The translations under genes and the position numbers were made by a program. A DNA stretch of 23,628 nt, from the NCBI GenBank assembly GCA_030526225.1, contig JAUNDF010000031.1:1-23628 (forward strand). Reading direction: 5' to 3'. The notes under the pieces are model-generated. The model made no database searches and was not told where the DNA came from. It saw only the letters and a list, made by a program, of their open reading frames with translations. Below are positions 812-18,804 of the stretch, piece by piece; the first letter of the stretch is position 1, and the number at the start of each line of letters is the position of its first letter. The DNA is from Clostridia bacterium (lineage in GTDB: Bacteria > Bacillota > Clostridia > Christensenellales > Aristaeellaceae).

Positions 812-1144
812 TCAAACCTCAGTATATTCGTCCATCGATTCAGCAGTAATCTCCGCTGCAACTTCGTCATACATACCATTGAGGTTCTTAAGAAATTGCA
901 TATTACACGGACGTCCATGCTCAAAACAAAAGATCTCAATGCCGGCTTTTGTAAGTGCTTCGCAGCATCCGAGCAGACGCTTCAAGTCATGTCGGTCTGT
1001 ATATCCGCACTTAAGTAAATAGTCTTTGTTTTCTATACGTCTCTTGATATCGGCAATAGAAATTGCCTCATACCCTCGCACAACTGAGACGCATTTCGAC
1101 AGAGTCGCGTCTGCTGGGACCTTAATACCGATAATACTTTCCAT
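812..1144 (-). CDS. Small hypothetical protein, putative immunity protein for the upstream GHH nuclease toxin
   Basis: 110-aa ORF. The ATG at 1144-1142 is preceded by GAGGAGGAG, which overlaps the toxin stop codon. Position immediately 3' of a toxin domain is typical of toxin/immunity pairs. No family recognised from sequence. Confidence 0.5.
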   Translation of the reverse strand: MESIIGIKVPADATLSKCVSVVRGYEAISIADIKRRIENKDYLLKCGYTDRHDLKRLLGCCEALTKAGIEIFCFEHGRPCNMQFLKNLNGMYDEVAAEITAESMDEYTEV

Positions 1145-1155
1145 TTTACTCCTCC

Positions 1156-1682
1156 TCAGAAATCTACGATGATGATGATGGGAATGCCAGGCCTGCTCTT
1201 CCGGAAATTACCGCCATGCCAGCCATAGAGATGCTCATTAAAAGTAGCGGGGTAAATAACCTCTCCTTTATCTGCAAGGTGCGGATACTTGATTACACTG
1301 TATGTGTGATGTCCTTGAATGGTCTTGCCGCTATGTTTCGGTTTGCTACCACTCAGTATTGACTATAATTGTTCCTGTGTCCAGCGCCGCGTACCGGGTT
1401 GTCCCGCAAGAATGCGCTCTCTCTCTTGTTCCCAAAACTTATTTACGCCTCGAGTCCTTCGTTCAGCAAGTCGCACATTACTCATATGCTGCTTATATTC
1501 ATTTTTGGTAGCGGTTTTGTTATCTACACGTCTCTTGAGTTCTCGTGCCGACAACTTGCTGATTTTTTTACAGGATGCTCCCGCAAGTCTAACCCCTTAG
1601 TTCGCAATGCGATGACATCAAAGTTACCTACATGAAATGCACCAATTGTTCCAGTAAATAACCTGCTATTACCTTTACTCAT
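1156..1682 (-). pseudogene. GHH-signature HNH/EndoVII-fold nuclease toxin (Tox-GHH-like), interrupted by a frame change at an A7 run and by one in-frame TAG
   Basis: ATG at 1682-1680 follows RBS GGGAGGGAG. The frame changes at the A7 run (T7 on the plus strand, 1563-1569). In-frame TAG at 1363-1365. After the TAG the frame reads SGKTIQGHHTYSVIKYPHLADKGEVIYPATFNEHLYGWHGGNF, and before it ...RRWTQEQL, both typical of GHH toxins. TGA stop at 1156-1158. Confidence 0.6.
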
Positions 1683-1683: not shown

Positions 1684-2487
1684 TCACTCCCTCCCTTCGA
1701 AGACCTGGGCGGTCTTACTACTGAAGAAAATGATATTGATTCCTCGGCTTCTCAGTTTATCGAAGCAAGCGCCTCTTGCCGAACCATAAACCAAAATGGT
1801 GTGAGGTTGGAGCTGTTTAACCATAGCGAAGAGGCCGGCTTCAAAACGTTCTCGGTTAATGAGCTTGCGAGGACCGCCTCCGACGGTCCCAATGGCAACA
1901 ATGCTGTTTTGGGGAATCCCTTCAAAGCAATAATCAAAGGTTTCTTCTGTACCCCAACGAACATTATTGATGACGGGAAGTCCATTTTTCCCGAGCCAAT
2001 ACCCATACAGGCGCATGCGATAGGTCGCATAAATCTTGATGGCCTCAGGAAAGTCTTGATACGTGGAAAAATCAGGAGTGATTGCACCGGCAAAATGACG
2101 AAGAACGCGCAGTGCTTGCTTACAGTCATGCCAGATACCACGTGGTCCATCAAACTTCTGATCGTCGATGTAGAAACACACATACGCATCGTGAGTAAAA
2201 TCATACTTCTTGAGGGCGATGTGTTTCTTATAGATCGCCTTGGCTTCTTCCCAAGTAATAAGCGCACTGGGCAAAGTCTTTGCCGTGGTTGGGCAGAAAG
2301 GGATGTCATGCTTGCCAAACATTGCACCATCTGCCATAAAGGCATTCCAGATATCCTTCAGTCCTGGTCTGACACTATCATTGACCTTTATGTTGTCATT
2401 TGGCAGAGAAACAAGGCGAATATCGGATGCCTTTATACCGCTCAGGACTGTGTCAACATCCATGTCGAACAGGGAGAGTTGATTCAT
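1684..2487 (-). CDS. DUF4417 domain protein
   Basis: 267-aa ORF. The motif block CFYIDDQKFDG...ITPDFSTYQDFPEAIKIYATYRMRLYGYWLGKNGLPVINNVRWGTEETFDYCFEGIPQNSIVAIGT matches my recollection of the DUF4417 signature (FYIDDxxF, PDFS, N/TxYR, VIPxVxWG, CFxGI). TGA stop. Confidence 0.75.
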   Translation of the reverse strand: MNQLSLFDMDVDTVLSGIKASDIRLVSLPNDNIKVNDSVRPGLKDIWNAFMADGAMFGKHDIPFCPTTAKTLPSALITWEEAKAIYKKHIALKKYDFTHDAYVCFYIDDQKFDGPRGIWHDCKQALRVLRHFAGAITPDFSTYQDFPEAIKIYATYRMRLYGYWLGKNGLPVINNVRWGTEETFDYCFEGIPQNSIVAIGTVGGGPRKLINRERFEAGLFAMVKQLQPHTILVYGSARGACFDKLRSRGINIIFFSSKTAQVFEGRE

Positions 2488-2626: not shown

Positions 2627-3145
2627 TTAGCTCATGATGGCATTCTTGATGGATTGATAGTCCCAATATAGTTCTCCGTCAATACCTCTATACATTGCAG
2701 CGACATGCTGCCCTTTGTATCGAAGCACTTCCGGGCACTTATTCCGATTAATGTGGGTAGCATTATAGAGAACAACAATTTTTAGCCCATCGTTGGCTGC
2801 CTTCTGACATTCATATTGGATAAAACTTCGGTAATCAATATGCATGCCGTGTGCACAGTTTGCCGTATGTGAATTATAGCAACTGCAGTACCGACAGCTA
2901 CCTTTTGTGAGCGAGTTGGTAGTTTCGCCAACTATCAGCACAAAGGTTTTTGATGCATCAAGACGTACCGCCAAGGATTTTTTAATGCTACATGGGAGGC
3001 TTGTATCCCGCGCCTGCGTTATTTCGTGTGCATCAAAAAAAGAAAGCGTCAATCTCTGGCTATTGTTCCAATAATACAAAGTATCAATCAAATCTTTGTC
3101 GCCAGTCCAGTCACCGGCAATATATGTTTTCGTCCGATAGGCCAT
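2627..3145 (-). CDS. TIR-like domain protein (DUF1863 / MTH538 TIR-like, ThsB-like) with an inserted Cys/His cluster
   Basis: 172 aa. N-terminus AYRTKTYIAGDWTGDKD...FFDAHEITQARDTSLPCSIKKSLAVRLDASKTFVLIVGETT...KCPEVL matches the DUF1863 TIR-like pattern seen in plasmid Tir and Thoeris ThsB proteins. The ATG directly abuts the upstream stop (TAAATG) and the RBS GGAGGTGGA lies inside the upstream gene. Confidence 0.7.
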   Translation of the reverse strand: MAYRTKTYIAGDWTGDKDLIDTLYYWNNSQRLTLSFFDAHEITQARDTSLPCSIKKSLAVRLDASKTFVLIVGETTNSLTKGSCRYCSCYNSHTANCAHGMHIDYRSFIQYECQKAANDGLKIVVLYNATHINRNKCPEVLRYKGQHVAAMYRGIDGELYWDYQSIKNAIMS

Positions 3146-4246
3146 TTAGTCCACCTCCATCTTTAGATCATTCATAGCTTCTTTTGAAGCTACAATCGTA
3201 ATCTGTCCTTGCAATAATTGTATATTATCCATCATTTCCTCACGGATTAGATCAAATGAGGCTTGAAAACTCAAAGCCGCGCGTGATCGGCCAGTTCCCA
3301 ACAGCGGGAGATACAATGGATAGCCATTTCCATAGCGATTATAAAATTTCAAAAGAGATAACACTGCTTTCCGAATATCGTATTCCGTACTATGGGCTAT
3401 ATTCTGTTCATCAAATGTTGAGATGGCTAGCAGATAATAGACTGCATTGCTACTATTGATAACGGCAATGCTACCGATAGCGTAATGTTTTCTTTCTGCC
3501 TGATCAACTGTGTATGTCAGCTTCTGCTTCATAAGGTTCATTTTAATTTGTGAATTTAGCTATTCAATTGTGTTGCCCGCTTTCGTCCAACGGTCAATCC
3601 ATTTTCCATGGAGTGTCGTCGGTGAAACAATAGGAGCTTCAGCACCCTCCGTTGTCCACGTGATATGTGTATCAAAAGATGTATTGACAGGAATCACTAC
3701 GATGGACGGTTGTTTCTTGCGATTGCCGAATCCGTATTTGAACAGGTCGCCTGTTATCAACTGGAGCGAATTTGTTCCACGATGCCACAGATAGTTTTCC
3801 GCTGCCGTTGTTATTCTATTGTCCAGTCTGATAGCCTCGAAGAAAGCAGCGCAGAGATAATCTGTTACATTGTTCTCAAGCCTAGACAATCGTTGCTTTG
3901 TTTCAGCAGACATCGTTGGTGTGCTATTTACAATGGCACTTATCTCTTGAATTAGGGCAGGCAGCTGCTCCTGAACAAGCGTATCATCGATGAATGCTAC
4001 AAAACCATCTTTTGTATTTTCACTGATACCGTAGGAGGACAGTGCATTTCGCATAGCAGTAGGTACATCATCCTTCTGTGACAGCAATGTACTGACACGA
4101 GATTTATTTAGGTCGAGCCTCTCTCTGTTCTTGTCCTTTATGTTGCCCGCACAGATATAAGGGGTAAATAGGTTTCGCACAAACTCTTCATCCGTTATGG
4201 ACGGGTCGATTGCTCGTTTTTTGAGTGCCGTAATGAAATATGCCAT
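3146..4246 (-). CDS. Macro-domain protein (ThsA_Macro-like) with a ~155-aa helical N-terminal domain; contains one in-frame TAG at 3560-3562
   Basis: ORFs 3560-4246 and 3146-3541 are in the same frame and separated only by a TAG. The macro-like fold spans the junction: ...LITGDLFKY...SIVVIPVNTSFDTHI...LHGKWIDRW...E[TAG]LNSQI...HYAIGSIAVI...YYLLAISTFDE...PLYLPLLGTGRSR...ITIVAS. TAA stop at 3146-3148. The RBS-like GAAGGAGGAG lies unusually far (~18 nt) from the ATG at 4246. Confidence 0.6.
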
Positions 4247-4584
4247 GCAAAACAGAGTAACACTCCTCCTTCTCAGCTTGAAAATGCATCAGCCTATGAA
4301 AGCTTCATATTCGGGTAGAAGTCGACGTGTATATCTGAGATTATGAACCATATAGAACACCGTTATCAATTATAGCACACATTCTTGCCAAAATCGATAC
4401 AAACAAAGCCTGGCCATACTCTATAGCACCAATGCAGTATGCACTATTTTTAATGCGATGTTGGTCTTTCGCTTCTAATCAACGATTTTCTCAACTGCTT
4501 TATTATATATTTTTCTTTAAGCAGGAAAAAACCGCACTTATTTTGTCCATATAAAGTAGGAGGATTAATCTTCTAACATCGTCG

Positions 4585-4616
4585 AAAGCCGTGCTGCCGC
4601 CCACGGCTTTTTTGTT
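4585..4616 (+). terminator. Plus-strand intrinsic terminator with no annotated gene upstream
   Basis: AAAGCCGTG (4585-4593) pairs with CACGGCTTT (4602-4610), followed by a T-run. On the minus strand there is no U-tract, so it is oriented plus. Confidence 0.55.
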
Positions 4617-4739
4617 GTGCGGATTTTGAATCATTCCTCCAATAATCACAGCAAGAAAGGAACAAAACCATGATGACATATCTGCTTATCAGCACCTTCT
4701 GTTACATGGCAAAAATAATCAGAAAAGGAGGAATACGGG

Positions 4740-4910
4740 ATGGCTGAAAGCATGAACATTGAAGAAATGGAAATCCCGGACGATGCCATTGAGCGCATAG
4801 CCCGGTGTTTGCTGCCTGCTTTGCAGGCTTTTTTTGAAAGCGATGAAGGAAAAGGCGAATTTGCCCGATGGCTGGCGCAGCGTGAACCGCTGAACAACCC
4901 CGCTGCCTGA
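4740..4910 (+). CDS. Small hypothetical protein (56 aa) at the head of the mobilization module
   Basis: ATG at 4740 is preceded by AAAGGAGGAAT. Translation MAESMNIEEMEIPDDAIERIARCLLPALQAFFESDEGKGEFARWLAQREPLNNPAA. TGA stop. Below the ORF-track length cutoff. Resembles small acidic proteins I recall next to Mob genes in Firmicutes elements. Confidence 0.45.
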   Translation: MAESMNIEEMEIPDDAIERIARCLLPALQAFFESDEGKGEFARWLAQREPLNNPAA

Positions 4911-5002
4911 TGGCGCGATTGCCATCACTGACAAACCAAGCATGGCCGGGTGATGGCGAAAGTGCTGTCACCCGGCGGCGCTTATTCATCAAGGAGGTTT
5001 AT

Positions 5003-5215
5003 ATGAAAGATACGGTCAAGTATGCAACGCAGCTGCTGCACCGGGTTCAGGAGCAGGATGCACGGGCGAAGGTGCGGGCAAGAAAGGCACGAACCCATCG
5101 CCTGATTGTGGAAGGCGGTACGCTGGAGAAGGTGATGCCGACGGTGATGCTGATGAATCCGGAGGAGCTGGAACGGTTCCTGCGGGACATGCTCTGCAGG
5201 GAGAAACCGGAATAA
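5003..5215 (+). CDS. DUF3847-like mobilization accessory protein (70 aa)
   Basis: ATG at 5003 follows RBS AAGGAGG. The coiled-coil basic sequence ...VQEQDARAKVRARKARTHRLIVEGGTLEKV... is typical of DUF3847 proteins found upstream of MobA/MobL relaxases. TAA stop. Confidence 0.55.
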   Translation: MKDTVKYATQLLHRVQEQDARAKVRARKARTHRLIVEGGTLEKVMPTVMLMNPEELERFLRDMLCREKPE

Positions 5216-5327
5216 TGCCGGACAGGCATATCGGCCGGGACGCTGCTGACAATCAGGCGCAGCACCATCCCGGCTTTGATGGGGGAAGCCTTCTGCGGAA
5301 GCTCCCCCAAGCCCCCTCCCCGGGGCG

Positions 5328-5421
5328 AAGGGCGCACTTACTCACCACCCGCAAGGAGCGGTGGTATCCCTGCGGGCCCGTGCGCTCTCCGAGGGGGCTG
5401 TTTCGCTCTCTGCGGAGAGCG
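5328..5421 (-). other. Putative oriT: MobQ-type nick motif with adjacent inverted repeats
   Basis: The minus strand reads GTAAGTGCGCCCTT (complement of 5328-5341). This is the RSF1010/R1162-type nick-region core TAAGTGCGCCCT. On that strand it is immediately preceded by the imperfect inverted repeat ACCACCGC-TCCTT-GCGGGTGGT. A second inverted repeat CGCTCTCCG (5383-5391) / CGGAGAGCG (5413-5421) is present. The region is GC-rich and non-coding. Confidence 0.6.
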
Positions 5422-5463
5422 ACAGGCCTCCTGCCTGATACAATGCCGAAAGGAAGGTGAAGC

Positions 5464-7113
5464 ATCTTCGCCATTTATCATTTGGAGGCCAAGGTCATCA
5501 GCCGCGGAAACGGCCGCAGTGCGGTGGCAGCTGCTGCTTACGCAAGCCGTTCCAATCTTTATAACGACTATGATGGCCTTCGCCATAATTACACAAGGAA
5601 GCATGATTTGCTTTGGCAGAACATCTATCTGCCGGAAAATGCGCCGGCGGCATGGTACAATCGATAGCAATTATGGAACGCCGTGGAGGCAGAAGAGTCT
5701 ACTAAGGACAGCCGGTTGGCACGGGAATTCATCCTTGCATTGCCGGTGGAATTGGACGAAAGCCGCTGGCAGGATATCCTGACGGAATACATCCGTGATA
5801 GTTTTGTTAGCGATGGTATGTGTGCCGATGTTTCGATCCACTGTGACAATGAGGGTCACAACCCACATGCCCATCTGATGGTCACCGTTCGTCCGCTGGA
5901 TGAGCATGGCGGCTGGCAGTATAAGACAAAGAAGGAATACCTCTGTGTCCGTGATGGTGCGGAGCAAGGCTTTACGGCAGAGGAGTATGCTGCCGCGAAG
6001 GCGCTTGGATGGGAGAAGCAATATCTCTTTCAGGTGGGGAAGAAGAAAGAGTATATGACCATGGAAGCAGGGCTGGCCGGCGGATATAAGCGCACGGATA
6101 AGCATCCTAAAAGCACCAAATACGGACGGCAGAACCCCATCTCTGCCAGATGGAACAGCGAAGAACAGCTGCTTGTCTGGCGTGAACAATGGGCGATTGT
6201 GGTCAACAAATATCTGGAACAGGAAGGCTTCGCGGAACGCATCGATCACCGCAGCTTTGCATAGCGCGGCATCATGGCAGAACCAACCATCCACGAAGGC
6301 GTCGTGGCCAGAGCCCTTGAAGCGAAGGGCATCATCGCCGACCGATGCGAAATCAATCGTATCATCAAGGCGGAAAACAGACTGTTGGCAGAAAACAAAA
6401 AATCCGATGTGCCTAAACAGCAACCATCGGACAATCATCAACATGTTAATGTTATTGAGAAGTGGGAGAGCATCAGAGATGAATTGATTTTCACGCAGTA
6501 CCGGCTGGCTCTCCATCAACAACGGCGGGAATCAATCGAAGCGTTTCTTTCTCAGAAGGAACCTGACATGGCCCGGTATCGTGCAAAGAGGAACGAACTG
6601 ACAGTCCTCAAAAGCAAACGAAAAGCACTGCGGAATGAGCTGGTAAATCTCGGGATGCTCCATCCCATTCAGGCCGGAAAGCTGAACAAGAAGATTGCAG
6701 AAATCACCGAAGAAATGGAAGATGTCATCAGCGAAAGAAACATGCTGTTGACCAAGCTGGACTGCGCTGATGTGAAAGAAGCAAAAGCGTTGGAAAAGCA
6801 AATTGTTTCCGCCCATGATACTCGCAATGCCATTCTTACAAAGACCCCGCAGCTCCGTAACCGAATAGAGCAATTGTGTGCATAGTACCGGCAGGGAAGT
6901 GAACAAACGGGTAAATATGACAGTGATGCTGTTGACAGAATCCACAAAGAGCATTTGCACCGGGTTCGGGCAAAGCTGGAAAGCACCTTCGGTGAAGACT
7001 TTGATGCGCAGCTGTTTGAACGGTGTGTGACAGAGGTTGATGACATGATTCAGCATGAGCATCGGTCTGTCAAACGACATGCACAGCGTGAGTAGCGGAA
7101 TGAAATGCGTTAA
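5464..7113 (+). CDS. MobA/MobL-family (MobQ-type) relaxase; single frame with four in-frame TAG codons and no canonical start codon
   Basis: Frame 1 is continuous from 5461 to the TAA at 7111-7113. Conserved relaxase motifs span the TAGs: (F)AIYHLEAKVISRGNGRSAVAAAAYASR...WYNR[TAG]QLWNAVEAEE...LAREFILALPVEL...HNPHAHLMVTVRP...IDHRSFA[TAG]RGIMAEPTIHEG...LCA[TAG]YRQG... (69 open codons) ...QRE[TAG]RNEMR. TAGs at 5665, 6262, 6883 and 7093. The start is uncertain: ATC 5464, ATT 5473 or TTG 5482. Confidence 0.7.
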
Positions 7114-7499
7114 TCCACTTCTTCACGGAAACGCTGTGCTATTTTGGCGATTCGCTTGGTGATGGCACTGGGGGATTTCAGCCCAAGGGTTGATGCAATA
7201 TCTCCCAGTGCTTTCCCTTCGGCCCGCATCTGAAGAATCATCATGTCTTCATCAGACAGTCCTTTTTTGAATTCTTCGATGCTCGTTTTACGGACAACAT
7301 CCTCGGCGGTATGTGATGCGTATGCATCTGAATCAAAGATTTTCGCATTGTTCTCGAGCATTTGCTCCAGAGAATATACTGCCTTGACCTTGGTGTCTGA
7401 ACGCACATGCGTCCAGCGTTTCATGAAGTCCTTCACGGCATAATTATCACTGCCGTTGTAGTCTTCCAACTGGCGATTGTTCCAAACAGCATCGATCAA
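7110..7499 (-). CDS. Sigma-70 region-4 / LuxR-type HTH protein (ICE/IME-type small sigma-like regulator)
   Basis: C-terminus LSDEDMMILQMRAEGKALGDIASTLGLKSPSAITKRIAKIAQRF is a region-4-type HTH. TAA stop at 7110-7112 overlaps the relaxase TAA. The start is uncertain: TTG 7499, or ATG 7424 with AAGGA upstream, or a fusion to the upstream ORF through the TAG at 7515-7517. Confidence 0.55.
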   Translation of the reverse strand: MIDAVWNNRQLEDYNGSDNYAVKDFMKRWTHVRSDTKVKAVYSLEQMLENNAKIFDSDAYASHTAEDVVRKTSIEEFKKGLSDEDMMILQMRAEGKALGDIASTLGLKSPSAITKRIAKIAQRFREEVD

Positions 7500-7514
7500 G
7501 GGCTGAAGATTTTC

Positions 7515-8036
7515 CTACCGGATAATCATGTCAGTCAGATTACCGACGAGATTGCCGAAGTGCTTGTAATCAAGCCAAGGAACACGAACGCCCGGCGGCA
7601 TCAGAAACAGCCGCTGAAAGCTGAAGCCCATGTCTGTTTCAAACTTTTCCCGGAAGAACATCTGCAAATAATAGCTCAACCGCCACAACGGAAAATCACC
7701 GGAGTAATAGCTCCAGTCCCCGGGAATGTCACGATAGGTGCCATCCTTCAGCGGAATCTGTATGAATTGCCAGATAGACCAGGCGTAACAATCCCAGACA
7801 AGCTCAAGAAATGCATCATCCTCAATCAGCTTGACACATTCCGATGATGACAATAACTCGTTGATGTTGCGGGGAAGGGCAGCGTATTCCGGACGCTTTC
7901 CTGCCAGCTCCGACGGCAAAGCATAGAACATGGGCAGCCAGGACAGGTTCGAAGATTTCGGGATTTCGATTATCGTATCGGGCAGCACAGCGATATAACC
8001 CATAGGGCCGGGGTTTGAATGAACAGCTTCGATCAT
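7515..8036 (-). CDS. Hypothetical protein (173 aa); ends at a TAG that is in frame with the downstream HTH ORF
   Basis: ATG at 8036-8034 is preceded by AAGGGAGAA. Translation MIEAVHSNPGPMGYIAVLPDT... No family recognised. The TAG at 7515-7517 is followed by 5 sense codons and then the 7499 ORF in the same frame. Confidence 0.45.
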   Translation of the reverse strand: MIEAVHSNPGPMGYIAVLPDTIIEIPKSSNLSWLPMFYALPSELAGKRPEYAALPRNINELLSSSECVKLIEDDAFLELVWDCYAWSIWQFIQIPLKDGTYRDIPGDWSYYSGDFPLWRLSYYLQMFFREKFETDMGFSFQRLFLMPPGVRVPWLDYKHFGNLVGNLTDMIIR

Positions 8037-8179: not shown

Positions 8180-8206
8180 AAGAGCATGCCTAAGGAGGTT
8201 GTACTC

Positions 8207-8566
8207 ATGAAAATTGTATCGGAACGACTCAAGAGCCTGCGTCAAAGTATGGGCATTTCCCAAGCGAAACTGGCAGAAATGTTCGGATCACGGCAAGCCA
8301 ACATCAACCGCTATGAGCATGATGAAACGCAGCCGTCCATTGCTGTACTTTGCCAGTATGCGGATTTCTTTGATGTTTCCCTTGATTACATTTGCGGACG
8401 AACAGATGAACCGCAAGGAAAGCTGTACAAGGTAGAGCCTGCCTATTCTCCTGACAAGGAGCTCATGGCGAAGTTTATCGAAATGTGTTTTGAACCTGGC
8501 TCTTTGGCCAACAAGAAGCTGCGGGAAACCATGTTGAAAATTGCGATGGAGGAAACAGAAAAATGA
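8207..8566 (+). CDS. Xre-family helix-turn-helix transcriptional regulator
   Basis: ATG at 8207 follows AAGGAGG. LKSLRQSMGISQAKLAEMFGSRQANINRYEHDETQPSIAVLCQYADFFDVSLDYICGRTD is a typical HTH_3 domain. The TGA overlaps the recombinase ATG (ATGA). Confidence 0.8.
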   Translation: MKIVSERLKSLRQSMGISQAKLAEMFGSRQANINRYEHDETQPSIAVLCQYADFFDVSLDYICGRTDEPQGKLYKVEPAYSPDKELMAKFIEMCFEPGSLANKKLRETMLKIAMEETEK

Positions 8567-10083
8567 CAGGTGTCATCTATGCTCGCTACTCCTCTGACAA
8601 TCAGCGTGAGGAAAGCATTGAAGGGCAGTTGCGTGAGTGCATGGCATTTGCGGAAAGAAGCGGGATTACAATCATTGCCAACTACATCGACCGGGCTATG
8701 TCGGCCCGGACTGCTGACCGTCCTGATTTTCAGCGAATGATTAAGGACAGTGAAAAGAAGCTGTTTGATGTGGTCATCGTTTGGATATTAGACCGATTTT
8801 CCCGTGACCGTTATGACAGTGCCAATTACAAACACATTCTGAAAAAGAATGGTGTGAAGGTTATATCTACTACGGAAAATATCTCGGATGGCCCGGAAGG
8901 TGTCCTGTTGGAATCTATGTTGGAAGGTCTGTCCGAATACTACTCTGCTGAACTGTCTGTAAAAATTCATCGCGGGCAGATGGAGAATGCTTTGAAAGGC
9001 AAGAACAACGGCGGTAACATTCCATTGGGATATCGAACAGGCGAAGATGGTGTATTGGAAATCAATCCAGTGACGGTGCCTGTTGTGCAAGAAATCTTTC
9101 AGCGCTATGATGAAGGTGACAGCATGACAGACATTGTGGATTCGCTCAATGAACGAGGTATCCGCACAGCAAAAGGATTGCCCTTTCGCATCGGCAGTCT
9201 TGGTACAGTGCTGAAAAATCGCAAATACATCGGCGAGTATCGCTACGGAACGATTGTGATTCCGAATAAGCTGCCGGTCATCATTGATGAAGCGCAATTT
9301 AATCGGGTACAGCAGAAGCTGCAGACCAACAAGCGTGCTCCTGCTCGTGCAAAGGCAGAGGAAGAGTATTTGCTGACAACAAAGCTGTTTTGCGGCAAGT
9401 GTGACACCATGCTCGTCGGCGAAAGCGGCAGAAGCCGCAACGGAGATGTCCACCATTATTACAAGTGCGGAAATGCCAAGCGCGGAAAAGGCTGTAAATT
9501 GAAGACGCTGAAAAAACGCTGGATAGAGCAAGCTGTCGTAGCAGCCACCATTCAGCGTGTGATGAATGACGATGTGATTGACAGAATTGCCGATGCAATT
9601 GTCGCACTTCAGGAAAAAGAAAGCACGATGCTGCCTTCGTTGAATCAGCAGTTGAAAGAATGCGAAAAGTCAATTCGGAACATGCTGAATGCCATCGAGG
9701 CCGGCATTATCACACCTTCTACCAAAGAGCATTTGCAGGAGCTGGAAGCTCGCCGGGAAGAACTCAAAGTTGCGATTCTTCAGGAAAAGCTCCAGCGCCC
9801 AAAGCTTACCAAGGAACAAATTGTATTCTGGATCAGCCGCTACAAGCACGGAGATCCCAATGACCTGAACTATCAGCGGCAAATCATCGATACATTCATC
9901 AACAGAATCTATGTGTATGATGAAAAATTGGTGCTGACTTATAACTATAAAGAGAGAGCTGAATCAATTACCCTGGAAGATATTCAGCAGGCATTTGGTT
10001 CGGATTTGTCGAGTATTGCTCCACAAAACAGAAGCCCGAACCTTTTCCCACTGTGGAACAAGGTTCGGGTTTTCTTTGCCTAA
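8563..10083 (+). CDS. Large serine recombinase (resolvase/invertase N-terminal domain + recombinase domain + zinc ribbon)
   Basis: 506 aa. N-terminus VIYARYSSDNQREESIEGQ...RPDFQRM...VVIVWILDRFSRD (catalytic Ser motif). Cys cluster CGKCDTML...YYKCGNAKRGKGC. Coiled-coil C-terminal part. The last ~25-30 codons run through the repeat/hairpin at 10011-10080. TAA stop. Confidence 0.9.
   Translation: MTGVIYARYSSDNQREESIEGQLRECMAFAERSGITIIANYIDRAMSARTADRPDFQRMIKDSEKKLFDVVIVWILDRFSRDRYDSANYKHILKKNGVKVISTTENISDGPEGVLLESMLEGLSEYYSAELSVKIHRGQMENALKGKNNGGNIPLGYRTGEDGVLEINPVTVPVVQEIFQRYDEGDSMTDIVDSLNERGIRTAKGLPFRIGSLGTVLKNRKYIGEYRYGTIVIPNKLPVIIDEAQFNRVQQKLQTNKRAPARAKAEEEYLLTTKLFCGKCDTMLVGESGRSRNGDVHHYYKCGNAKRGKGCKLKTLKKRWIEQAVVAATIQRVMNDDVIDRIADAIVALQEKESTMLPSLNQQLKECEKSIRNMLNAIEAGIITPSTKEHLQELEARREELKVAILQEKLQRPKLTKEQIVFWISRYKHGDPNDLNYQRQIIDTFINRIYVYDEKLVLTYNYKERAESITLEDIQQAFGSDLSSIAPQNRSPNLFPLWNKVRVFFA
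10011..10080 (+). repeat. Right copy of the imperfect direct repeat (tRNA-3'-end-like sequence plus hairpin), inside the 3' end of the recombinase ORF
   Basis: CCCGAACCTT (10035-10044) pairs with AAGGTTCGGG (10060-10069). Inner TTCC/GGAA pairing, followed by TTTTCTTTG. Same architecture and flanks as 536-606. Confidence 0.55.
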
Positions 10084-10212: not shown

Positions 10213-11505
10213 TCACGCCGAAGCGCAATCGAAGAATTTCTTGTAAATCGCCCGGGTGCTGTCCTCGAAGCAGGCTTCTTCCACGCCGATGACAATGCTC
10301 ATGGGGCTGCCGCCCTGGTCGATAATCCGCACGTTTGTGCCGATGTCACCCACGGCGGAGAACAGCTTGCCGGAAATGCCCGGGCGGTTCATCATGCCAA
10401 AGCCGACCACGGCAATCATGGCGAAGCCGTCGGTGATTTCCAGCCTGTCCGGGTCAACGGCCTTGCGGATGTCCTGGGTCAGGGCATCACGACAGCTCTC
10501 CAGCGCGGCGGTGGGTACCACCAGCGAGAAGGCGGAAAGTCCGGTGGCCATATGCTCAAAGGCCACGCTGTACCGCTCAAGGCAGGAAAGGGTCTTGCGC
10601 ACATAGCCGACCATGGCGTTCATCTTTTCCTTTTCGATGGAGATGACGGAGAAGCCCTTGCGGCCCGCAACGCCGGTGACGGGATTGTCGTGGGTCACGT
10701 TTTCGGCGCGAATCCACGTGCCCTCTGCCTCGGGGCAGAAGGTGTTGCAGATGTGAATGGGGATGCCTGCATCCCATGCGGGGCGGACGGCATCCTCGTG
10801 GAGCACGGTAGCGCCCTGATAGGTCATCTCCTGCAGCTCTTCATAGGTGATGGTGGGGATGGTGACCGCCTGTGACACAATGCGGGGATCGGCGGTCAGG
10901 ATGCCGTTGACATCCGTCCAGTTTTCGTACACCTCGGCATGCATGGCAGCCGCAACCAGCGCGCCGGAAATGTCGCTGCCGCCGCGGCTGAAGGTGTGCA
11001 CCTGACCGTCGGGCATGGCACCGTAATAGCCGGGCAGCACGGCATGCTCCAGCTGGGACAGCTTGTCCCGCAGGGTGCGCTCTGTCTTCCGGCGGTCCAG
11101 ACGCCCCTGTTCATCGAAAAACACGCAGAACTCCGTATCCACAAAGGGCCAGCCCAGATAGGCGGCCATAATCCGTGCGGACAGGTATTCGCCGCAGGAG
11201 GCCATGTAATCCACATTGTGGCGCTGATGCTTCATCTCAGCATAGTCCTGGCTCAGGTCGATTTCGACGCCCAGTTCGCTGATAATCTCCGCAAAGCGGT
11301 CCTCAATGGGCTGAAAATCCTTTACATCACCGGTGTGATAGAACCGGATGAGATGGTCGGTGATTTTCGTGTCACCGGCATTGCGTTTTCCGGGGGCGGA
11401 AACCACCACGAAGCGCCGTTCCGGATTGGCGCGGATAATGTCCGCGGCGCGGCGGATGTTCTGTGCGTCCGCCAGGGAGGAGCCGCCGAATTTGCAGGCA
11501 ATCAT
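10213..11505 (-). CDS. Aspartate kinase
   Basis: MIACKFGGSSLADAQNIRRAADII...FVVVSAPGK... plus C-terminal ACT-like repeats. The second ATG (11505) has a GGAGGG RBS at good spacing. TGA stop. Confidence 0.85.
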   Translation of the reverse strand: MIACKFGGSSLADAQNIRRAADIIRANPERRFVVVSAPGKRNAGDTKITDHLIRFYHTGDVKDFQPIEDRFAEIISELGVEIDLSQDYAEMKHQRHNVDYMASCGEYLSARIMAAYLGWPFVDTEFCVFFDEQGRLDRRKTERTLRDKLSQLEHAVLPGYYGAMPDGQVHTFSRGGSDISGALVAAAMHAEVYENWTDVNGILTADPRIVSQAVTIPTITYEELQEMTYQGATVLHEDAVRPAWDAGIPIHICNTFCPEAEGTWIRAENVTHDNPVTGVAGRKGFSVISIEKEKMNAMVGYVRKTLSCLERYSVAFEHMATGLSAFSLVVPTAALESCRDALTQDIRKAVDPDRLEITDGFAMIAVVGFGMMNRPGISGKLFSAVGDIGTNVRIIDQGGSPMSIVIGVEEACFEDSTRAIYKKFFDCASA

Positions 11506-11553
11506 GCTTGTTCCCTCCATGCTGCGGTCCGGGGATGACCGGGCCTTATTAGT

Positions 11554-12759
11554 TTACCGCCGGCTGCCCAAGCGGCATTTGAAATCCTCATAGCCGAAGG
11601 TGCGCAGGGGCTGGATGCTGCCATCCTGTCTGCGGACAAGAATCGCAGGCAGTGGCATACCGTTGAAGGTGTTGTTTTTGCAGGTGGTGTAAATGGCCAT
11701 GTCACCAAAGAGCAGCAGCTCGCCCTCCTGCAGGGGATGGTCGAAGCTGTAGTCGCCGATGATATCGCCCGCCAGACAGGTGGGTCCGCCCAACCGGACA
11801 GTGCAGGCCTTCTCGTTTGCCTCTCCGGCATCATACAGGGGAGGACGATAGGGCATCTCAATCACATCGGGCATATGACAGGCGGCACTGGCATCAAGAA
11901 TGGCAAGGGATGTATCGCCGTTGCGGGAGGTATCCAGCACACGGGTGGCCAGATAACCGGCATTCAGGGCACAGGCTTCGCCGGGCTCCAGATACACCTG
12001 TACGCCCCATGTGTCGCGGGCATGGCAGATGCACTTCTCCAGCCGGGCCACATCGTAATCACTGCGGGTGATGTGATGGCCGCCGCCCATGTTCAGCCAC
12101 GTCATGCGGGGGAGAACATCGCCGAATTTGGCCTCTACTGCCTGCAGGGTTGTTTCCAGCGCATCGCTGTCCTGCTCGCAGAGGGTGTGGAAGTGGAGAC
12201 CGTCCAGCAGGGCGATGGTGTCCTCGTCCATGGCTGCATCCCACTGGGCGCGGGTGGTACCCAACCGGCTGCCGGGGGCGCAGGGGTCATAGATTTCATG
12301 GCCCTCCTGCGTGGAGCATTCCGGGTTGATGCGCAGACCGATGCTCTTGCCGGCTGCCTTGGCAGAAGGACCGAACTTCTTCAGCTGATTCGGGGAGTTG
12401 AACACAATGTGGTCAGCCCAGTCAAGCAGCTCGGCGAACTCATCCTCACGATAGGCGCCGCAGAAAACATGCACCTCGCCGTCAGGCATTTCCTCCCGGC
12501 CCAGCCGTGCCTCATACAGGCCGCTGGCTTCGGTGCCGGCCAGATAGGGCGCAAGCACCGGATAAAGGTCGTAGTTGGAGAAGGCCTTCTGGGCCAGCAG
12601 AATCTTTGCGCCGGTGCGCTGCATCACCCCGGCAAGCATCTCACCGTTGCGGCGCAGCATTGCTTCATCCAGAATATAGCAGGGCGTGGGCAGCGCACCG
12701 AAAAGCTCCTCCGGTGTGCTGCCGCCAAGGCCCATAAAGCAATCGCGTGTATCCATCAT
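11554..12759 (-). CDS. nspC: Carboxynorspermidine/carboxyspermidine decarboxylase
   Basis: 401 aa. TPCYILDEAMLRRN...ILLAQKAFS...GTEASGLYEARLGREE...GLRINPE...YDPCAPGSRLG matches the NspC/CANSDC family. The ATG overlaps the upstream stop by 1 nt (12759). Confidence 0.85.
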   Translation of the reverse strand: MMDTRDCFMGLGGSTPEELFGALPTPCYILDEAMLRRNGEMLAGVMQRTGAKILLAQKAFSNYDLYPVLAPYLAGTEASGLYEARLGREEMPDGEVHVFCGAYREDEFAELLDWADHIVFNSPNQLKKFGPSAKAAGKSIGLRINPECSTQEGHEIYDPCAPGSRLGTTRAQWDAAMDEDTIALLDGLHFHTLCEQDSDALETTLQAVEAKFGDVLPRMTWLNMGGGHHITRSDYDVARLEKCICHARDTWGVQVYLEPGEACALNAGYLATRVLDTSRNGDTSLAILDASAACHMPDVIEMPYRPPLYDAGEANEKACTVRLGGPTCLAGDIIGDYSFDHPLQEGELLLFGDMAIYTTCKNNTFNGMPLPAILVRRQDGSIQPLRTFGYEDFKCRLGSRR

Positions 12760-14018
12760 CAGTCCACCAGCACGGGAGCATGGTTCTCACTGCGGGGGAG
12801 ACCATACTTGTCCAGTGCATCCAGGAAAGGATCGGGATCGAACTCCTCCACGGTGTGCACGCCCTTTTCGGTCCACTTGCCGGTCAGCAGCATCAGTGCG
12901 CCGCACATGGCGGGTACGCCGGTGGTGTAGCTGATGGCCTGAGAGCCCACCTCGCGGTAGCATTCCTGATGGTCGCAGACGTTGTAGATGTAGTAGGTCT
13001 TGTCCTGACCGTCCTTCTTGCCGGTGAAGATGCAGCCGATGTTGGTCTTGCCGTGGGTACGGGGGCCAAGGCTGGCGGGATCGGGCAGCAGGGCCTTCAG
13101 GAACTTGATGGGCACAATCTCCTTGCCCTCAAACATGATGGGGGTGGTGGACAGCATGCCCACATCCTCCAGACAGCGCATGTGATCCAGATAGCTCTGA
13201 CCAAAGGTCATGAAGAAGCGGATGCGCTTTGCCTCGGGGATGTTCAGGGCGATGGACTCAATCTCCTCGTGATGCAGCAGGTACATGTCCTTCTGACCAA
13301 CCTGATCGAAATCATACTCGCGCTTGATGGACATGGCGGGGATTTCCACCCAATGGCCGTCCTCCCAGTAGCTGCCGGGAGCGCTGACCTCGCGGAGGTT
13401 GACCTCCGGGTTAAAGTTGGTGGCAAACTTGTAGCCATGGTCGCCGCCGTTGCAGTCCAGAATATCGATGGTGTCGATGGTGTCGAACTCATGCTTCTTG
13501 GCATAAGCGCAGTATGCCTGAGTAACGCCGGGGTCGAAGCCGCAGCCCAGCAGGGCGGTCAGGCCGGCATCCTCAAACTTCTGCCGGTATGCCCACTGCC
13601 AGCTGTAATCAAAGTAGGCAGAGAAGCCGGCTTCCTTGCAGCGCTTTTCATAAATGGCGCGCCACTCGGGATCGTCGGTATCCTCGGGCTCGTAGTTGGC
13701 GGTATCCATGTAGTTTACGCCGCAGGCCAGGCAGGCATCCATGATGGTCAGATCCTGATAGGGCAGGGCGATGTTCATCACCAGATCGGGCTTGTAGTCG
13801 TTGATGAGCGCAATCAGCTCCTCCACCTTGTCGGCATCCACCTGAGCGGTGGTGATTTTGGTGGCGGTGTTGGGGGCCAGCTTGGCGGCCAGGGCATCGC
13901 ACTTGGACTTGGTGCGGCTGGCAATGCACAGCTCGGTGAATACCTCGCTGACCTGACAGCACTTGGAAATAGCAACCGTGGCCACGCCGCCGCAGCCGAT
14001 AACCAATACTCTGCTCAT
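12759..14018 (-). CDS. Carboxynorspermidine synthase/dehydrogenase (saccharopine dehydrogenase family)
   Basis: 419 aa. N-terminal Rossmann motif VLVIGCGGVA. Full-length resemblance to CANSDH/CASDH proteins (...GCGFDPGVT...FATNFNPEVNLRE...). Adjacent to nspC. Confidence 0.8.
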   Translation of the reverse strand: MSRVLVIGCGGVATVAISKCCQVSEVFTELCIASRTKSKCDALAAKLAPNTATKITTAQVDADKVEELIALINDYKPDLVMNIALPYQDLTIMDACLACGVNYMDTANYEPEDTDDPEWRAIYEKRCKEAGFSAYFDYSWQWAYRQKFEDAGLTALLGCGFDPGVTQAYCAYAKKHEFDTIDTIDILDCNGGDHGYKFATNFNPEVNLREVSAPGSYWEDGHWVEIPAMSIKREYDFDQVGQKDMYLLHHEEIESIALNIPEAKRIRFFMTFGQSYLDHMRCLEDVGMLSTTPIMFEGKEIVPIKFLKALLPDPASLGPRTHGKTNIGCIFTGKKDGQDKTYYIYNVCDHQECYREVGSQAISYTTGVPAMCGALMLLTGKWTEKGVHTVEEFDPDPFLDALDKYGLPRSENHAPVLVD

Positions 14019-14051
14019 GATGATTTCCTCCTGTATCTATGATGTTGATTG

Positions 14052-14909
14052 TTACTTTGTCAGCAGGGCCAGCAGCAGCTCCCGCAGGACCTTGCAGGCA
14101 GTGGCGGTGGAAACGCCGGTGGTATCCAGCATGGGTGCCAGCTCGTTGACATCACAGCCGACGATATTGCACCGGGTCACCGTGCGGATGGCACCCAGCA
14201 GCTGCAGGAAGGTGATGCCGCCTGCTTCAGGGGTGCCCGTTCCGGGGAACGCGGACGGGTCAAGGCAGTCAAGGTCGATGGTGAAGTAAACCGGTGTACC
14301 GGCTGCCTTCAGCTGGGCAACGCACTCCTCCAGACCGTCAAGGGTCAGGGGATGCATATCCGTATGCTCTTTGGCAAAGCGGAATTCCTCCCGCTCACCG
14401 CTGCGGATGCAGAACTGGTGGATGCGGCCGTCGCCCACAAGGTCATGGCAGCGGCGCAGCACGCAGGCATGGCTCAGCTTTGCGCCAAGGTAATCATCCC
14501 GCAGGTCTGCATGGGCATCAAAGTGGATGATGTGCACATCCGGATGATGCCGCAGCACAGCCCGGAAGCTGCCCAGGGTCACCAGATGCTCGCCGCCGAT
14601 GAGCAGGGGCAGCTTGCCATCTTTCAGGATGGTTTCCGCGCGCTCTTCGATATCTGCCAGAGCCTGCTCCGCACTGCCGAAGCACAGCTCCAGATCGCCG
14701 CTGTCGAACACGCTGTAGTCGGTCAAGTCAGCATCCTGATAGGGGCTGTAGGTCTCCAAACCAAAGCTTTCATGCCGCATGGCGGCGGAGCCGAACCGGG
14801 CGCCGGGACGGAAGGAGGTGGTGGAGTCAAAGGGAGCGCCGAACAGCACGATGGATGCATCCTCGTAGGAGGCATCGCAGCCGATAAAGGTCTCAACATT
14901 CCGTTCCAT
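14052..14909 (-). CDS. speB: Agmatinase (ureohydrolase family)
   Basis: 285 aa. Mn-binding motifs GGEHLVT, HFDAHADL, IDLDCLDPSAFPGTGTPEAGG. The ATG overlaps the speE stop by 1 nt. Confidence 0.85.
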   Translation of the reverse strand: MERNVETFIGCDASYEDASIVLFGAPFDSTTSFRPGARFGSAAMRHESFGLETYSPYQDADLTDYSVFDSGDLELCFGSAEQALADIEERAETILKDGKLPLLIGGEHLVTLGSFRAVLRHHPDVHIIHFDAHADLRDDYLGAKLSHACVLRRCHDLVGDGRIHQFCIRSGEREEFRFAKEHTDMHPLTLDGLEECVAQLKAAGTPVYFTIDLDCLDPSAFPGTGTPEAGGITFLQLLGAIRTVTRCNIVGCDVNELAPMLDTTGVSTATACKVLRELLLALLTK

Positions 14910-15763
14910 TATTCTTCAACCTCCATGAGCATTTCCTCCAGGAAGGCCGGCAGGGCAAAGGCACCCTGATGCAGCCGGGGAGTGTAGTACCGGGTGCGCA
15001 GGTTCAGGCTGTACCAATCCTCGGCATTCAGGTCGTTGATGGGATGATACTTCTTGCTGGCAAAGCCGAAGAGCCAGTAGCCGGCAGCGTAGGTGGGAAT
15101 ATGGGCCTGATACACCTTGCTGATGGGGAAGGTGTTGACGATGCGCTTGTGGCTGCGCTGCATGGCCTCTGCATCCTCGGCATAGAAGGGGCTGCCCTGC
15201 TGATTCACCATGATGCCGTCATCCTTCAGGGCGTTGTAGCAGTTGCCATAGAATTCGCGGGTGAACAGACCCTCGGAAGGGCCGAAGGGGTCGGTGGAGT
15301 CCACGATAATCAGATCGTATTCTTCCTCACGGTTGCGGATAAAGCGCAGGGCGTTTTCAAAATGGATGTGCACCCGGCGGTCATCCATGCGGCAGGCGTT
15401 TCCGGGCAGGAATTCGCGGCAGGCCTCGATAACCACCGGATCCATTTCCACCAGATCGATGCGGCGGATGCGGTCATAGCGGGTCAGCTCCCGAACCACG
15501 CCGCCGTCACCGGCACCGATGACCAGCACATCCCGGATGCCGGGATGCACCGCCATGGGCACGTGGGTAATCATTTCGTCATAGATAAATTCGTCGCGCT
15601 CTGTCAGCATGACATTGCCGTCCAAAGCCAGCACCCGGCCGAATTCGGGGGTCTCGAAAATGTCAATCTGCTGGTAGCTGCTCTTTTTGGAAAACAGATG
15701 CCGCGTCACCCGCAGGGAGTGGCGCACATGCTTGGTATGATACTCGCTGAACCACATTTCCAT
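14909..15763 (-). CDS. speE: Spermidine synthase / polyamine aminopropyltransferase
   Basis: 284 aa. WFSE...QQIDIFET..FGRVLALDG..MLTERDEFIYDEM..VLVIGAGDGGVVRE..IIVDSTDPFGP. Confidence 0.9.
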   Translation of the reverse strand: MEMWFSEYHTKHVRHSLRVTRHLFSKKSSYQQIDIFETPEFGRVLALDGNVMLTERDEFIYDEMITHVPMAVHPGIRDVLVIGAGDGGVVRELTRYDRIRRIDLVEMDPVVIEACREFLPGNACRMDDRRVHIHFENALRFIRNREEEYDLIIVDSTDPFGPSEGLFTREFYGNCYNALKDDGIMVNQQGSPFYAEDAEAMQRSHKRIVNTFPISKVYQAHIPTYAAGYWLFGFASKKYHPINDLNAEDWYSLNLRTRYYTPRLHQGAFALPAFLEEMLMEVEE

Positions 15764-15776
15764 GGCATTTTCCTCC

Positions 15777-17231
15777 TTACTTCAGCACATTGAGCCGCAG
15801 GATATCCGGGTCCTCGGGGCCGGTCATAGAGCAGCCCTTGTCCTTGGCAAACTCAATATAGTCCAGAATTTCACGGGTGATTCTCTCGCCGGGGGCCAGA
15901 ATCGGGATGCCCGGGGGATAGCACATCACAAACTCACTGCACACCTGACCCTCTGTTTCGCGAAGGGGCAGGGATACCTTCTCGGCATAGAAGGCTTCCT
16001 GCGGTGAGGTAACCACGATGGGGTCGATGTATTCCTGCTTCAGCAGGTCGGAGCTGTCCCGCTGATAGCGGCGGCGGATTTCGGCCAGTGCGCTGACGAG
16101 ACGCTCCAGCTCCTGCACACGGTCGCCCATGGACAGGTATGCCAGAATGTTGCCGATGTCGCCGAACTCAATCTGGATGTCGTATTCATCCCGCAGAATG
16201 TCATAGACCTCAATGCCCGCCAGACCGATGCTGCGGGTGTTGATGGAAAGCTTGGTGGGGTCGAAATCAAACACGGAGTTGCCGTTGCGCAGCTCCTTGC
16301 CGAAAGCGTAGTAGCCGCCGATGGCATTGACCTCTTCCCGGGCGTATTCCGCCATGTCTTCCACCCCGTGGAACACCTGACGGCCGCGCAGGGCCAGATT
16401 CCGGCGGGAGATGTCAAGGCTGGACATCAGCAGATAGCTGCCGGAGGTGGTCTGGGTCAGGTTGATAATCTGGCGCACATAGCCCGCATGGATGTTGGGG
16501 CCGCACAGCAGCAGGCTGGACTGGGTCAGGCTGCCGCCGCTTTTGTGCATGGATACGGAGGCCATATCAGCCCCGGCCTCCATGGCGGATACGGGCATGG
16601 AGGTGCCGAAGTAGAAGTGGGTGCCGTGGGCCTCGTCGGCAAGGCACAGCATACCGGCTTCGTGGGCCATGCGCACGATGGAGCGCAGGTCGGAGCAGAC
16701 ACCGTAGTAGGTGGGGTTGTTGACCAGCACGGCCACGGCGGAGGGATGCTCCCGGATGGCCTTGGCCAGACTCTCGCGGGTCATGCCCAGGGAAATGCCC
16801 AGCTTCTGGTCCACATCGGGATTGACGTAAACCGGCACCGCGCCGCACAGCACCAGCGCATTGATGACACTGCGGTGCACATTGCGGGGCAGGATGATTT
16901 CATCGCCGCGCTTGCAGGCAGTCAGCACCATGCTCTGCACAGAGCTGGTGGTGCCGCCCACCATCAGGAATGCATGAGCCGCGCCGAAGGCATCCGCCGC
17001 CAGCTCCTCAGCTTCCCGGATGACGGAAATGGGGTGGCAGAGGTTATCAAGGGGCTTCATGCTGTTTACGTCCAGGCTGACGCAGCGTTCGCCAAGGAAT
17101 GCGGTCAGCTCCGGATTGCCTCGTCCGCGCTTGTGACCGGGTACGTCAAAGGGAACGACCCGCATCTGCCGGAACCGCTGCAGCGCTTCGTAAATCGGAG
17201 CGCGGTTCTGGTCGAGTTTCATCTTCTTCAT
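15777..17231 (-). CDS. speA: Arginine (Orn/Lys/Arg family, PLP-dependent) decarboxylase
   Basis: 484 aa. Orn/Lys/Arg decarboxylase major-domain pattern with the PLP-lysine motif SMHKSGGSLTQSS. First gene of the polyamine operon, as with Bacillus-type SpeA. Confidence 0.8.
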   Translation of the reverse strand: MKKMKLDQNRAPIYEALQRFRQMRVVPFDVPGHKRGRGNPELTAFLGERCVSLDVNSMKPLDNLCHPISVIREAEELAADAFGAAHAFLMVGGTTSSVQSMVLTACKRGDEIILPRNVHRSVINALVLCGAVPVYVNPDVDQKLGISLGMTRESLAKAIREHPSAVAVLVNNPTYYGVCSDLRSIVRMAHEAGMLCLADEAHGTHFYFGTSMPVSAMEAGADMASVSMHKSGGSLTQSSLLLCGPNIHAGYVRQIINLTQTTSGSYLLMSSLDISRRNLALRGRQVFHGVEDMAEYAREEVNAIGGYYAFGKELRNGNSVFDFDPTKLSINTRSIGLAGIEVYDILRDEYDIQIEFGDIGNILAYLSMGDRVQELERLVSALAEIRRRYQRDSSDLLKQEYIDPIVVTSPQEAFYAEKVSLPLRETEGQVCSEFVMCYPPGIPILAPGERITREILDYIEFAKDKGCSMTGPEDPDILRLNVLK

Positions 17232-18745: not shown

Positions 18746-18755
18746 TTGTTGATGA

Positions 18756-18787: not shown

Positions 18788-18804
18788 GTTTTGGAGGCAA
18801 ACAC

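Follow-up and report, generated by a model that had tools for sequence, protein, structure and literature searches.

The DNA analyzed here, called the window throughout, is a 23,628-nucleotide stretch from a Clostridia bacterium (NCBI GenBank assembly GCA_030526225.1, contig JAUNDF010000031.1, positions 1 to 23,628 of the forward strand). Its left part carries a gene for a MobA/MobL relaxase of the MOBQ type in which four TAG codons stand in frame. An earlier note on this DNA had described positions 5464–7113 as one continuous 550-codon frame with four TAGs, and our listing of the stop codons agreed with it. In the frame of base 5464, across the span 4500–7600, the stops are TGA at 5458, TAG at 5665, 6262, 6883 and 7093, TAA at 7111 and TGA at 7231. 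The 550 codons therefore hold four TAGs and no TAA or TGA up to the closing TAA (7111–7113); the computed chance of 550 codons without TAA or TGA at the local composition is about 3e-8. The gene and its TAG sites are listed below, together with the codons found in L001, the closest intact relative, and the residues in the aligned family columns.

5464–7113, plus strand: MobA/MobL (MOBQ-type) relaxase gene; 549 sense positions including the four TAGs; probable ATC start, TAA stop
5665–5667, plus strand: relaxase TAG 1 (codon 68); GAG (Glu) in L001; family column G/S/E/A
6262–6264, plus strand: relaxase TAG 2 (codon 267); GAT (Asp) in L001; family column E in 69, A in 26 and D in 22 of 117
6883–6885, plus strand: relaxase TAG 3 (codon 474); GAT in L001; family column Q in 89 and E in 20 of 117
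7093–7095, plus strand: relaxase TAG 4 (codon 544), six codons ahead of the TAA; CGT in L001; family column Q in 81 of 117

The read-through product gave a single unbroken match to PF03389 (MobA_MobL), with residues 18–288 aligned to positions 1–224 of the 224-position profile (277.9 bits against a gathering cut-off of 26.7 bits; E = 9e-83), and this match traverses the first two TAGs. We drew relaxase homologues from a search of 5.8 billion proteins. Intact homologues of 543–570 amino acids cover 93–99% of the read-through product, which means that the C-terminal half, with TAGs 3 and 4, is homologous as well; the closest of them, P0001, is 67% identical. The earlier note had proposed aligning the read-through product with the MobA_MobL family and comparing the codons of orthologues at the TAG sites. 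The alignment proved to be collinear over all four TAGs, and relatives carry sense codons there (in L001, the four listed above). Together with the stop listing, these collinear homologues bore out the statement that the 1.65 kb hold no TAA, TGA or frameshift. All the conserved relaxase motifs that the note had quoted were found in the read-through product, flanking the TAGs on either side. Tyr26 in AAAAYASRS and the histidines of HNPHAHLMV are kept, and Y26, the predicted catalytic Tyr, and H132, H135 and H137 of the conserved His motif fall in columns that are invariant among the homologues.

The tetranucleotide TTAA (7110–7113) is common to the relaxase TAA and the stop of a convergent gene on the minus strand, an overlap that had also been noted before, and L001 has the same 4-nt overlap of the two gene ends. 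A C-terminal Arg that is near-invariant in the family lies past TAG 4. Because both this Arg and the shared stop overlap follow it, the TAG at 7093 is internal and not the ancestral stop. Under the standard code the gene is not an uninterrupted open reading frame (ORF), as it has four in-frame TAGs and lacks an ATG start. ATC at 5464 stands behind a Shine-Dalgarno-like GGAAGGTGA at normal spacing (5452–5466) and is likely a weak start. L001 has ATT at the aligned position (L001 5925–5930), and P0133, from the same cluster as L001, begins MAIYH with an ATG. The use of ATC here, ATT in L001 and ATG in another relative suggests that this relaxase subclade uses deliberately weak initiation. Apart from the coding anomaly, the relaxase is an ordinary MobA/MobL member.

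We re-read all six frames of the contig with TAA and TGA as the sole stops and then vetted the candidates by homology. Eight TAGs in all stand in frame on the contig, spread over five unrelated genes; no TAA or TGA does. The pattern, which the earlier note had missed, spans the whole contig: four genes besides the relaxase are affected, one of them outside the mobile element to which the relaxase belongs. With four more TAG-bearing genes, the explanation moves from the relaxase itself to how the cell decodes TAG. These genes and their TAGs are as follows, L088 being a second related sequence that is described further below.

3146–4246, minus strand: Thoeris ThsA gene (Macro-domain type); ThsA_Macro Pfam match of 101.9 bits in one stretch and PADLOC ThsA match of 188 bits across the TAG
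3560–3562, minus strand: ThsA TAG; CAG (Gln) in the three closest relatives, which are 81–86% identical
7110–8036, minus strand: convergent conserved gene of unknown function, collinear with its homologues in L001 and L088; one TAG
7515–7517, minus strand: TAG of the convergent gene; GAA (Glu) in L001 and L088
1172–1682, minus strand: Tox-GHH nuclease toxin gene; TAG in mid-domain, with the GHH motif after it
1363–1365, minus strand: Tox-GHH toxin TAG; Q and D in two distant homologues
17832–18608, plus strand: CheR methyltransferase gene; CheR_N plus CheR, 181 bits; collinear with 5FTW over residues 8–257
18042–18044, plus strand: CheR TAG (codon 71); Glu in 93 of 126 homologues and in Bacillus subtilis CheR (5FTW)

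The joined Tox-GHH product scored 57.9 bits compared with 35.5 bits for the fragment. In the region 1524–1682, its ATG at 1682 stands behind a strong Shine-Dalgarno sequence, and the toxin domain is reached only through a -1 shift at an A_AAA_AAA run (A7, 1563–1569); this frame change may reflect programmed slippage or phase variation, or be a true frameshift mutation. The CheR gene lies outside the mobile element, and its guanine-plus-cytosine content at third codon positions (GC3) of 0.71 is host-like and similar to that of the adjoining chromosomal-type genes. A minus-strand ORF at 17709–18425 had first been taken as a gene and was dropped once the plus strand proved to encode CheR. Also set aside as spurious were a read-through ORF at 231–1172 on the plus strand with three TAGs and several antisense read-through ORFs, which run antisense to real genes or over RNA features. 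The NCBI annotation, with locus-tag prefix Q4C54, splits both the relaxase and ThsA into separate hypothetical proteins, an instance of how standard annotation fragments TAG-bearing genes.

In homologues, Glu, Gln or Asp is aligned with each of the eight TAGs. The family columns lean to Glu for CheR, the convergent gene and relaxase codons 68 and 267, and to Gln for ThsA and relaxase codons 474 and 544. The aligned residues thus point to Glu or Gln as the probable meaning of TAG, and the two are indistinguishable at this level. No gene ends in TAG among about 22 (too small a sample for a firm conclusion), compared with 14–15% TAG terminators in related Clostridia loci (P ~0.03). We looked for a shared motif around the TAG sites and found none. 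At TAG 1, the context TAG CAA TTA resembles the readthrough signal of tobacco mosaic virus; we rejected this candidate, as the Q-L-W codons are inherited and also present in L001.

Errors of sequencing, assembly or binning could in principle have created such a pattern. The sequence stems from one metagenome, and the CheR TAG is known from one assembly only. Over window positions 4646–7036, a Logan assembly of run SRR24915835 (L003) matches at 100% identity, and since these 2,391 bases include the first three relaxase TAGs, those three are independently confirmed. Random errors would not be expected solely in frame, solely as TAG and solely on Glu, Gln or Asp columns, and other lineage-specific changes are not in excess. 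An artefact is therefore extremely improbable.

Taking these observations together, we think it probable, with some reservation, that TAG is translated here, most likely as Glu or Gln, by a tRNA with a CUA anticodon encoded outside the 23.6-kb contig. Judged from sequence, the phenomenon appears to behave like code-15 recoding, in that TAGs occur in several unrelated conserved genes across which homology continues and one residue class is found at the sites. Once TAG is decoded, the relaxase gene would be intact and functional in design, specifying a 549-residue MOBQ enzyme; by analogy with its family, this enzyme would nick the conserved origin of transfer (oriT) just upstream and pilot the element in mobilization. 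The decoder would need only one anticodon change from tRNA-Gln (CUG) or tRNA-Glu (CUC), and could be supplied by the host chromosome or by a resident TAG-recoded prophage or element. TAG might be fully reassigned or read ambiguously, in a suppressor-type state; the latter fits better than an old, complete reassignment because TAG density is low. In a further-reaching version, the host itself, and not a phage, would have assigned UAG to Glu or Gln or be in transition, with its own tRNA(CUA), with release factor 1 reduced or lost, and with mobile, defence and chromosomal genes all in that code. We offer this version tentatively and hold it to be doubtful.

The tests of constraint concern how these genes have evolved. 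The earlier note had judged the relaxase to be unlike a decaying pseudogene, and this judgement held. The read-through product keeps 107 of the 108 columns that are invariant in 117 homologues, the sole change being D to E, and shows 17 lineage-specific departures from the family consensus compared with 24 in the intact sister. Counted by inter-TAG segment, unique changes in the relaxase and in the intact sister P0001 were 3 vs 4, 3 vs 7, 9 vs 9 and 2 vs 4, respectively. Nonsense paths make up 226 of the 4941 possible single-base changes in the gene, and we infer that four nonsense hits arising neutrally should have come with about 87 substitutions and the loss of about 10 invariant residues.

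The other genes gave similar results. The window-specific terminal branch of ThsA has 24 synonymous and 7 non-synonymous codon changes, against a neutral expectation of 1 synonymous per 3.4 non-synonymous, with 8 and 3, respectively, downstream of the TAG. CheR keeps 29 of the 29 columns conserved at at least 90%. The relaxase, ThsA, the convergent gene and CheR together span about 1,480 codons without a frameshift; by contrast, a related relaxase on a Logan contig (L084 330–2009) is a genuine pseudogene that carries two frameshifts and one TAG. Apart from their TAGs the five genes are intact, and the mixed lesions and relaxed constraint of a decaying pseudogene were absent, with the A7 frame change in the toxin gene as the exception. 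Calculated from codon content, eight random nonsense mutations in the five genes would all be TAG with a probability of about 0.002. For eight random TAG-creating hits to land without exception on Q or E codons, the chance is 1e-4 to 1e-3; Trp, Tyr, Lys, Leu and Ser codons are frequent targets of such mutations, unlike the observed sites. General G-to-T or C-to-T hypermutation was rejected, as it would yield TAA and TGA as well.

Set beside L089, L090 and L091, the window-specific ThsA branch has G>A or C>T at 17 of its 31 base changes, a bias absent on the sister branches. The CAG-to-TAG change in ThsA belongs to this GC-to-AT class.

Several observations weigh against translation of TAG. TAG density is about 0.12% of codons (8 in about 6,900), and an old reassignment predicts more; about 3,300 codons of a polyamine operon and a hybrid kinase gene farther right are without TAG. 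ARAGORN found no tRNA with a CUA anticodon in the 23.6-kb window. The single Rfam tRNA match, at 472–538, was rejected as a suppressor, since ARAGORN did not call it and its anticodon loop is not CUA, and low-threshold ARAGORN output was noise. Beyond this metagenome-assembled genome (MAG), the exact relaxase fragment turned up solely in the Logan assembly made from the same run, so that only one sample carries it, and no second, independent assembly was found for the CheR TAG. The additional frame change in the toxin gene may mean that some decay is present, and the constraint tests leave room for very recent nonsense mutations. Each of the five genes with TAG is one that a cell can spare or that may harm it (a relaxase, a defence effector, a nuclease toxin, an orphan CheR and an unknown gene), and in such genes null alleles are tolerated or even selected.

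These points bear on another explanation, in which the TAGs are recent amber null alleles under the standard code, without suppression, and the five genes were lost through drift or selection against their cost or toxicity too recently for further decay. Besides the dispensability of the affected genes, it would account for the absence of TAG from essential-looking genes (the polyamine operon, the kinase and the recombinase). The changed frame of the toxin gene at the A7 run also speaks for it, as does the ThsA TAG, which differs from CAG by one C-to-T transition and lies on a branch where G>A and C>T make up 17 of 31 changes. In addition, the authors of Codetta caution that in-frame stops of pseudogenes can mimic reassignment. 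We nevertheless find null alleles unlikely. They leave eight TAGs out of eight to a chance of about 0.002, and the placement of all eight on Glu, Gln or Asp columns to a chance of about 1e-3 or less. The relaxase would have taken four independent hits without an excess of changes in any segment, when the remainder of the gene should drift after the stop at codon 68. Nor do null alleles account for the contrast between no frameshift in about 1,480 codons and two in the decaying L084, or for the lack of a TAG terminator among about 22 genes.

The left 10 kb of the window is an integrative mobilizable element with defence cargo. In addition to the relaxase, ThsA, convergent and toxin genes, it contains the following features.

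812–1144, minus strand: probable immunity gene for the toxin, named from position and a Shine-Dalgarno sequence only, with no family match; no TAG
1684–2487, minus strand: DUF4417 gene; no TAG
2627–3145, minus strand: ThsB TIR-like gene; PADLOC ThsB match of 263 bits; no TAG
5003–5215, plus strand: DUF3847 gene for a small putative relaxase accessory protein; same gene order in L001; no TAG
5236–5430, minus strand: oriT, a conserved non-coding block with hairpins at 5348–5376 and 5383–5422
8186–8566, plus strand: HTH_3 regulator gene; no TAG
8563–10083, plus strand: large serine recombinase gene; no TAG

The oriT block is about 90% identical to that of L001, compared with 67% protein identity between the relaxases, and the flanking genes are far more diverged. 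Within the block, GTAAGTGCGCCCT lies at 5329–5341 on the minus strand, and we take it to match the nick region of RSF1010/R1162. Pfam and PADLOC scans of the window ORFs revealed no phage structural, packaging or lysis genes. Because the carrier is a relaxase and serine-recombinase element without phage genes, it does not qualify as a recoded phage.

The distribution of TAG within the element recalls a further alternative, namely that the host stops at TAG and that full-length relaxase, ThsA and toxin are made only once a suppressor tRNA arrives with a TAG-recoded phage or from an induced prophage, so that TAG would act as an infection sensor or escape switch. The effector-type genes (relaxase, ThsA and toxin) carry TAG and their partners (recombinase, HTH regulator, ThsB and immunity) do not, and the relaxase would be further down-tuned by its probable non-ATG start. 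TAG-recoded phages with suppressor tRNAs infect and lysogenize Oscillospiraceae; in these phages recoding has been proposed as an expression switch, and the integrase is TAG-free. CheR and the unknown gene, however, lie outside any logic of defence or escape, and the contig has neither phage genes nor a suppressor tRNA. Four TAGs in one gene would require very efficient suppression, and this entirely inferential scheme has no published precedent that we could find. We therefore rate such a gate as quite improbable.

Parts of the element recur elsewhere. The ThsA-ThsB-DUF4417 cassette is conserved as a unit (L090 10001–12609, 82.6% nucleotide identity over 2.4 kb), and DUF4417 may be a third Thoeris-associated component. 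In L090, a metagenome contig, the Thoeris cassette adjoins a type I restriction-modification system. In L088 (GenBank MT836816.1, 8,637 bp, unannotated and filed as 'Bacteriophage sp.'), a relaxase of the MobA/MobL type occurs together with a serine recombinase and a homologue of the convergent gene; no phage genes are evident, and the record is probably that of a small mobilizable element mislabelled as a phage. Megablast against plasmid sequences did not find the element. The Rfam tRNA match at 472–538 on the plus strand (30.7 bits) is a tRNA-like 3' fragment with D, anticodon and T arms and a CCA end and without the 5' acceptor strand; it is probably a displaced tRNA 3' end or attachment-site (att) remnant at the left edge of the element. 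A strong terminator hairpin lies 3' of this fragment (region 472–600).

The right side of the window is of chromosomal type, and has the following features besides CheR.

10213–17231: polyamine operon; GC 0.58–0.61, GC3 0.73–0.80; no TAG
17552–17606, minus strand: SpF59/ldcC RNA motif in the leader of the polyamine operon, 62.4 bits
18664–18744, plus strand: c-di-GMP-I riboswitch, 60.8 bits, upstream of the small helix-turn-helix (HTH) gene
18718–19023: small HTH gene
19020–21872: hybrid histidine kinase gene, 950 amino acids, with periplasmic-binding domains; no TAG

The polyamine operon encodes arginine decarboxylase, spermidine synthase, agmatinase, and carboxynorspermidine dehydrogenase and decarboxylase, with an aspartate kinase-like gene last. 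It is 77–80% identical in nucleotide sequence to MAGs of the Faecalibacterium/Subdoligranulum type. The 80 genome loci that we retrieved through arginine decarboxylase have only the polyamine operon in common with the window, and in L092, whose arginine decarboxylase is a sister at at least 90% identity, synteny ends at the operon. A recent transfer from a Faecalibacterium-like donor that uses the standard code may have brought the operon in. Its flanks are lower in GC, and every TAG-bearing gene sits in them. Exact look-ups of the window proteins returned nothing or short Logan contigs only. A codon-degenerate pattern scan around TAG 1 found no copy in viral_contigs or genome_contigs, and metagenome_contigs gave only a chance 20-mer.

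The host could also be a pyrrolysine (Pyl)-decoding Clostridia bacterium in which the TAGs are sporadic Pyl sites. Pyl is the only route of UAG decoding in bacteria that we know of, and Pyl-using methanogens have in-frame TAGs in transposase-like and miscellaneous genes. The eight sites, however, are aligned with Glu, Gln or Asp and are not Lys-like, and Pfam and PADLOC scans of the window ORFs found no pyl genes or methylamine methyltransferases on the contig. Moreover, the nearest relatives by polyamine operon are Faecalibacterium/Subdoligranulum-like, a group that, to our knowledge, is not known for Pyl. Pyl decoding is thus very improbable.

UAG as a sense codon is documented for gut phages and prophages (code 15, Gln) and for pyrrolysine; beyond pyrrolysine, it is not known in bacterial chromosomes or mobilizable elements. 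Our literature searches brought up no account of natural TAG recoding in either of these or in plasmids, and nothing relevant on run SRR24915835. If the host itself recodes, it would be the first bacterium with a UAG sense code outside pyrrolysine, and the element would be the first mobilizable element shown in an alternative code. Translation of TAG would mean either that a bacterial lineage is changing its code or that the suppressor tRNAs of resident recoded phages are reshaping host and mobile-element genes; in either case, the locus would be a case from nature of the ambiguous-intermediate stage in the evolution of a code. A code mismatch of this kind could act as a barrier or gate for horizontal transfer and for the expression of defence systems.

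The relaxase resembles RSF1010/R1162 MobA and other MOBQ enzymes in its full MobA_MobL domain, N-terminal catalytic Tyr region and histidine triad, and in the oriT with GTAAGTGCGCCCT immediately upstream. It differs in the long coiled C-terminal half that is typical of Clostridia elements, the lack of a primase domain, the probable ATC start and the four TAGs. As to decoding, Escherichia coli K-12 lineages keep amber alleles together with a suppressor, for example supE (tRNA-Gln CUA) and rpoS(Am) at codon 33. There, TAG stands in for CAG or GAG in genes that are not essential, and ambiguous decoding by a Gln-inserting CUA tRNA makes it tolerable, as may be the case on the contig. Those strains, however, are laboratory lineages with single alleles, whereas here an uncultured gut bacterium has eight such sites, spread over five genes, and no suppressor was found on the contig. 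Pyrrolysine decoding (pylTSBCD) likewise has UAG read as sense in bacteria, although the sites on the contig are Glu/Gln/Asp-like and lack a pyl or methylamine context.

According to the Codetta survey, every known bacterial reassignment affects UGA. In a 2026 paper on UGA-to-Trp in Eggerthellaceae, phyla are counted for that reassignment alone, and UAG figures in the retrieved passages solely as a terminator. The bacterial UGA reassignments (UGA to Trp, code 4; UGA to Gly, code 25) share with the contig a stop codon that occurs inside conserved genes; it is absent there as a terminator, as TAG is in the small sample of about 22 genes here. The codon here is UAG, however, and the hallmarks there are loss of a release factor and a cognate tRNA.

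TAG-recoded (code 15) Topaz prophages with suppressor tRNAs and TAG-free integrases reside in standard-code Oscillospiraceae, and Garnet resides in Prevotella (Borges et al., bioRxiv 10.1101/2021.08.26.457843). Like these recoded gut phages and prophages, the contig has many TAGs in otherwise intact genes on a standard-code background, a TAG-free integrase or recombinase and Gln-like positions; TAG terminators are likewise lacking in its small sample of about 22 genes. The host groups are also alike, as the polyamine operon places the contig among Oscillospirales-like gut Clostridia. Unlike them, it has no suppressor tRNA, its TAG density is about 0.1–0.2% of codons, and its aligned residues lean to Glu at least as much as to Gln. 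The carrier here is an integrative mobilizable element with a relaxase, an oriT, a serine recombinase and defence cargo and without phage genes, and one of the TAG-bearing genes, CheR, lies outside that element and is host-like in composition.

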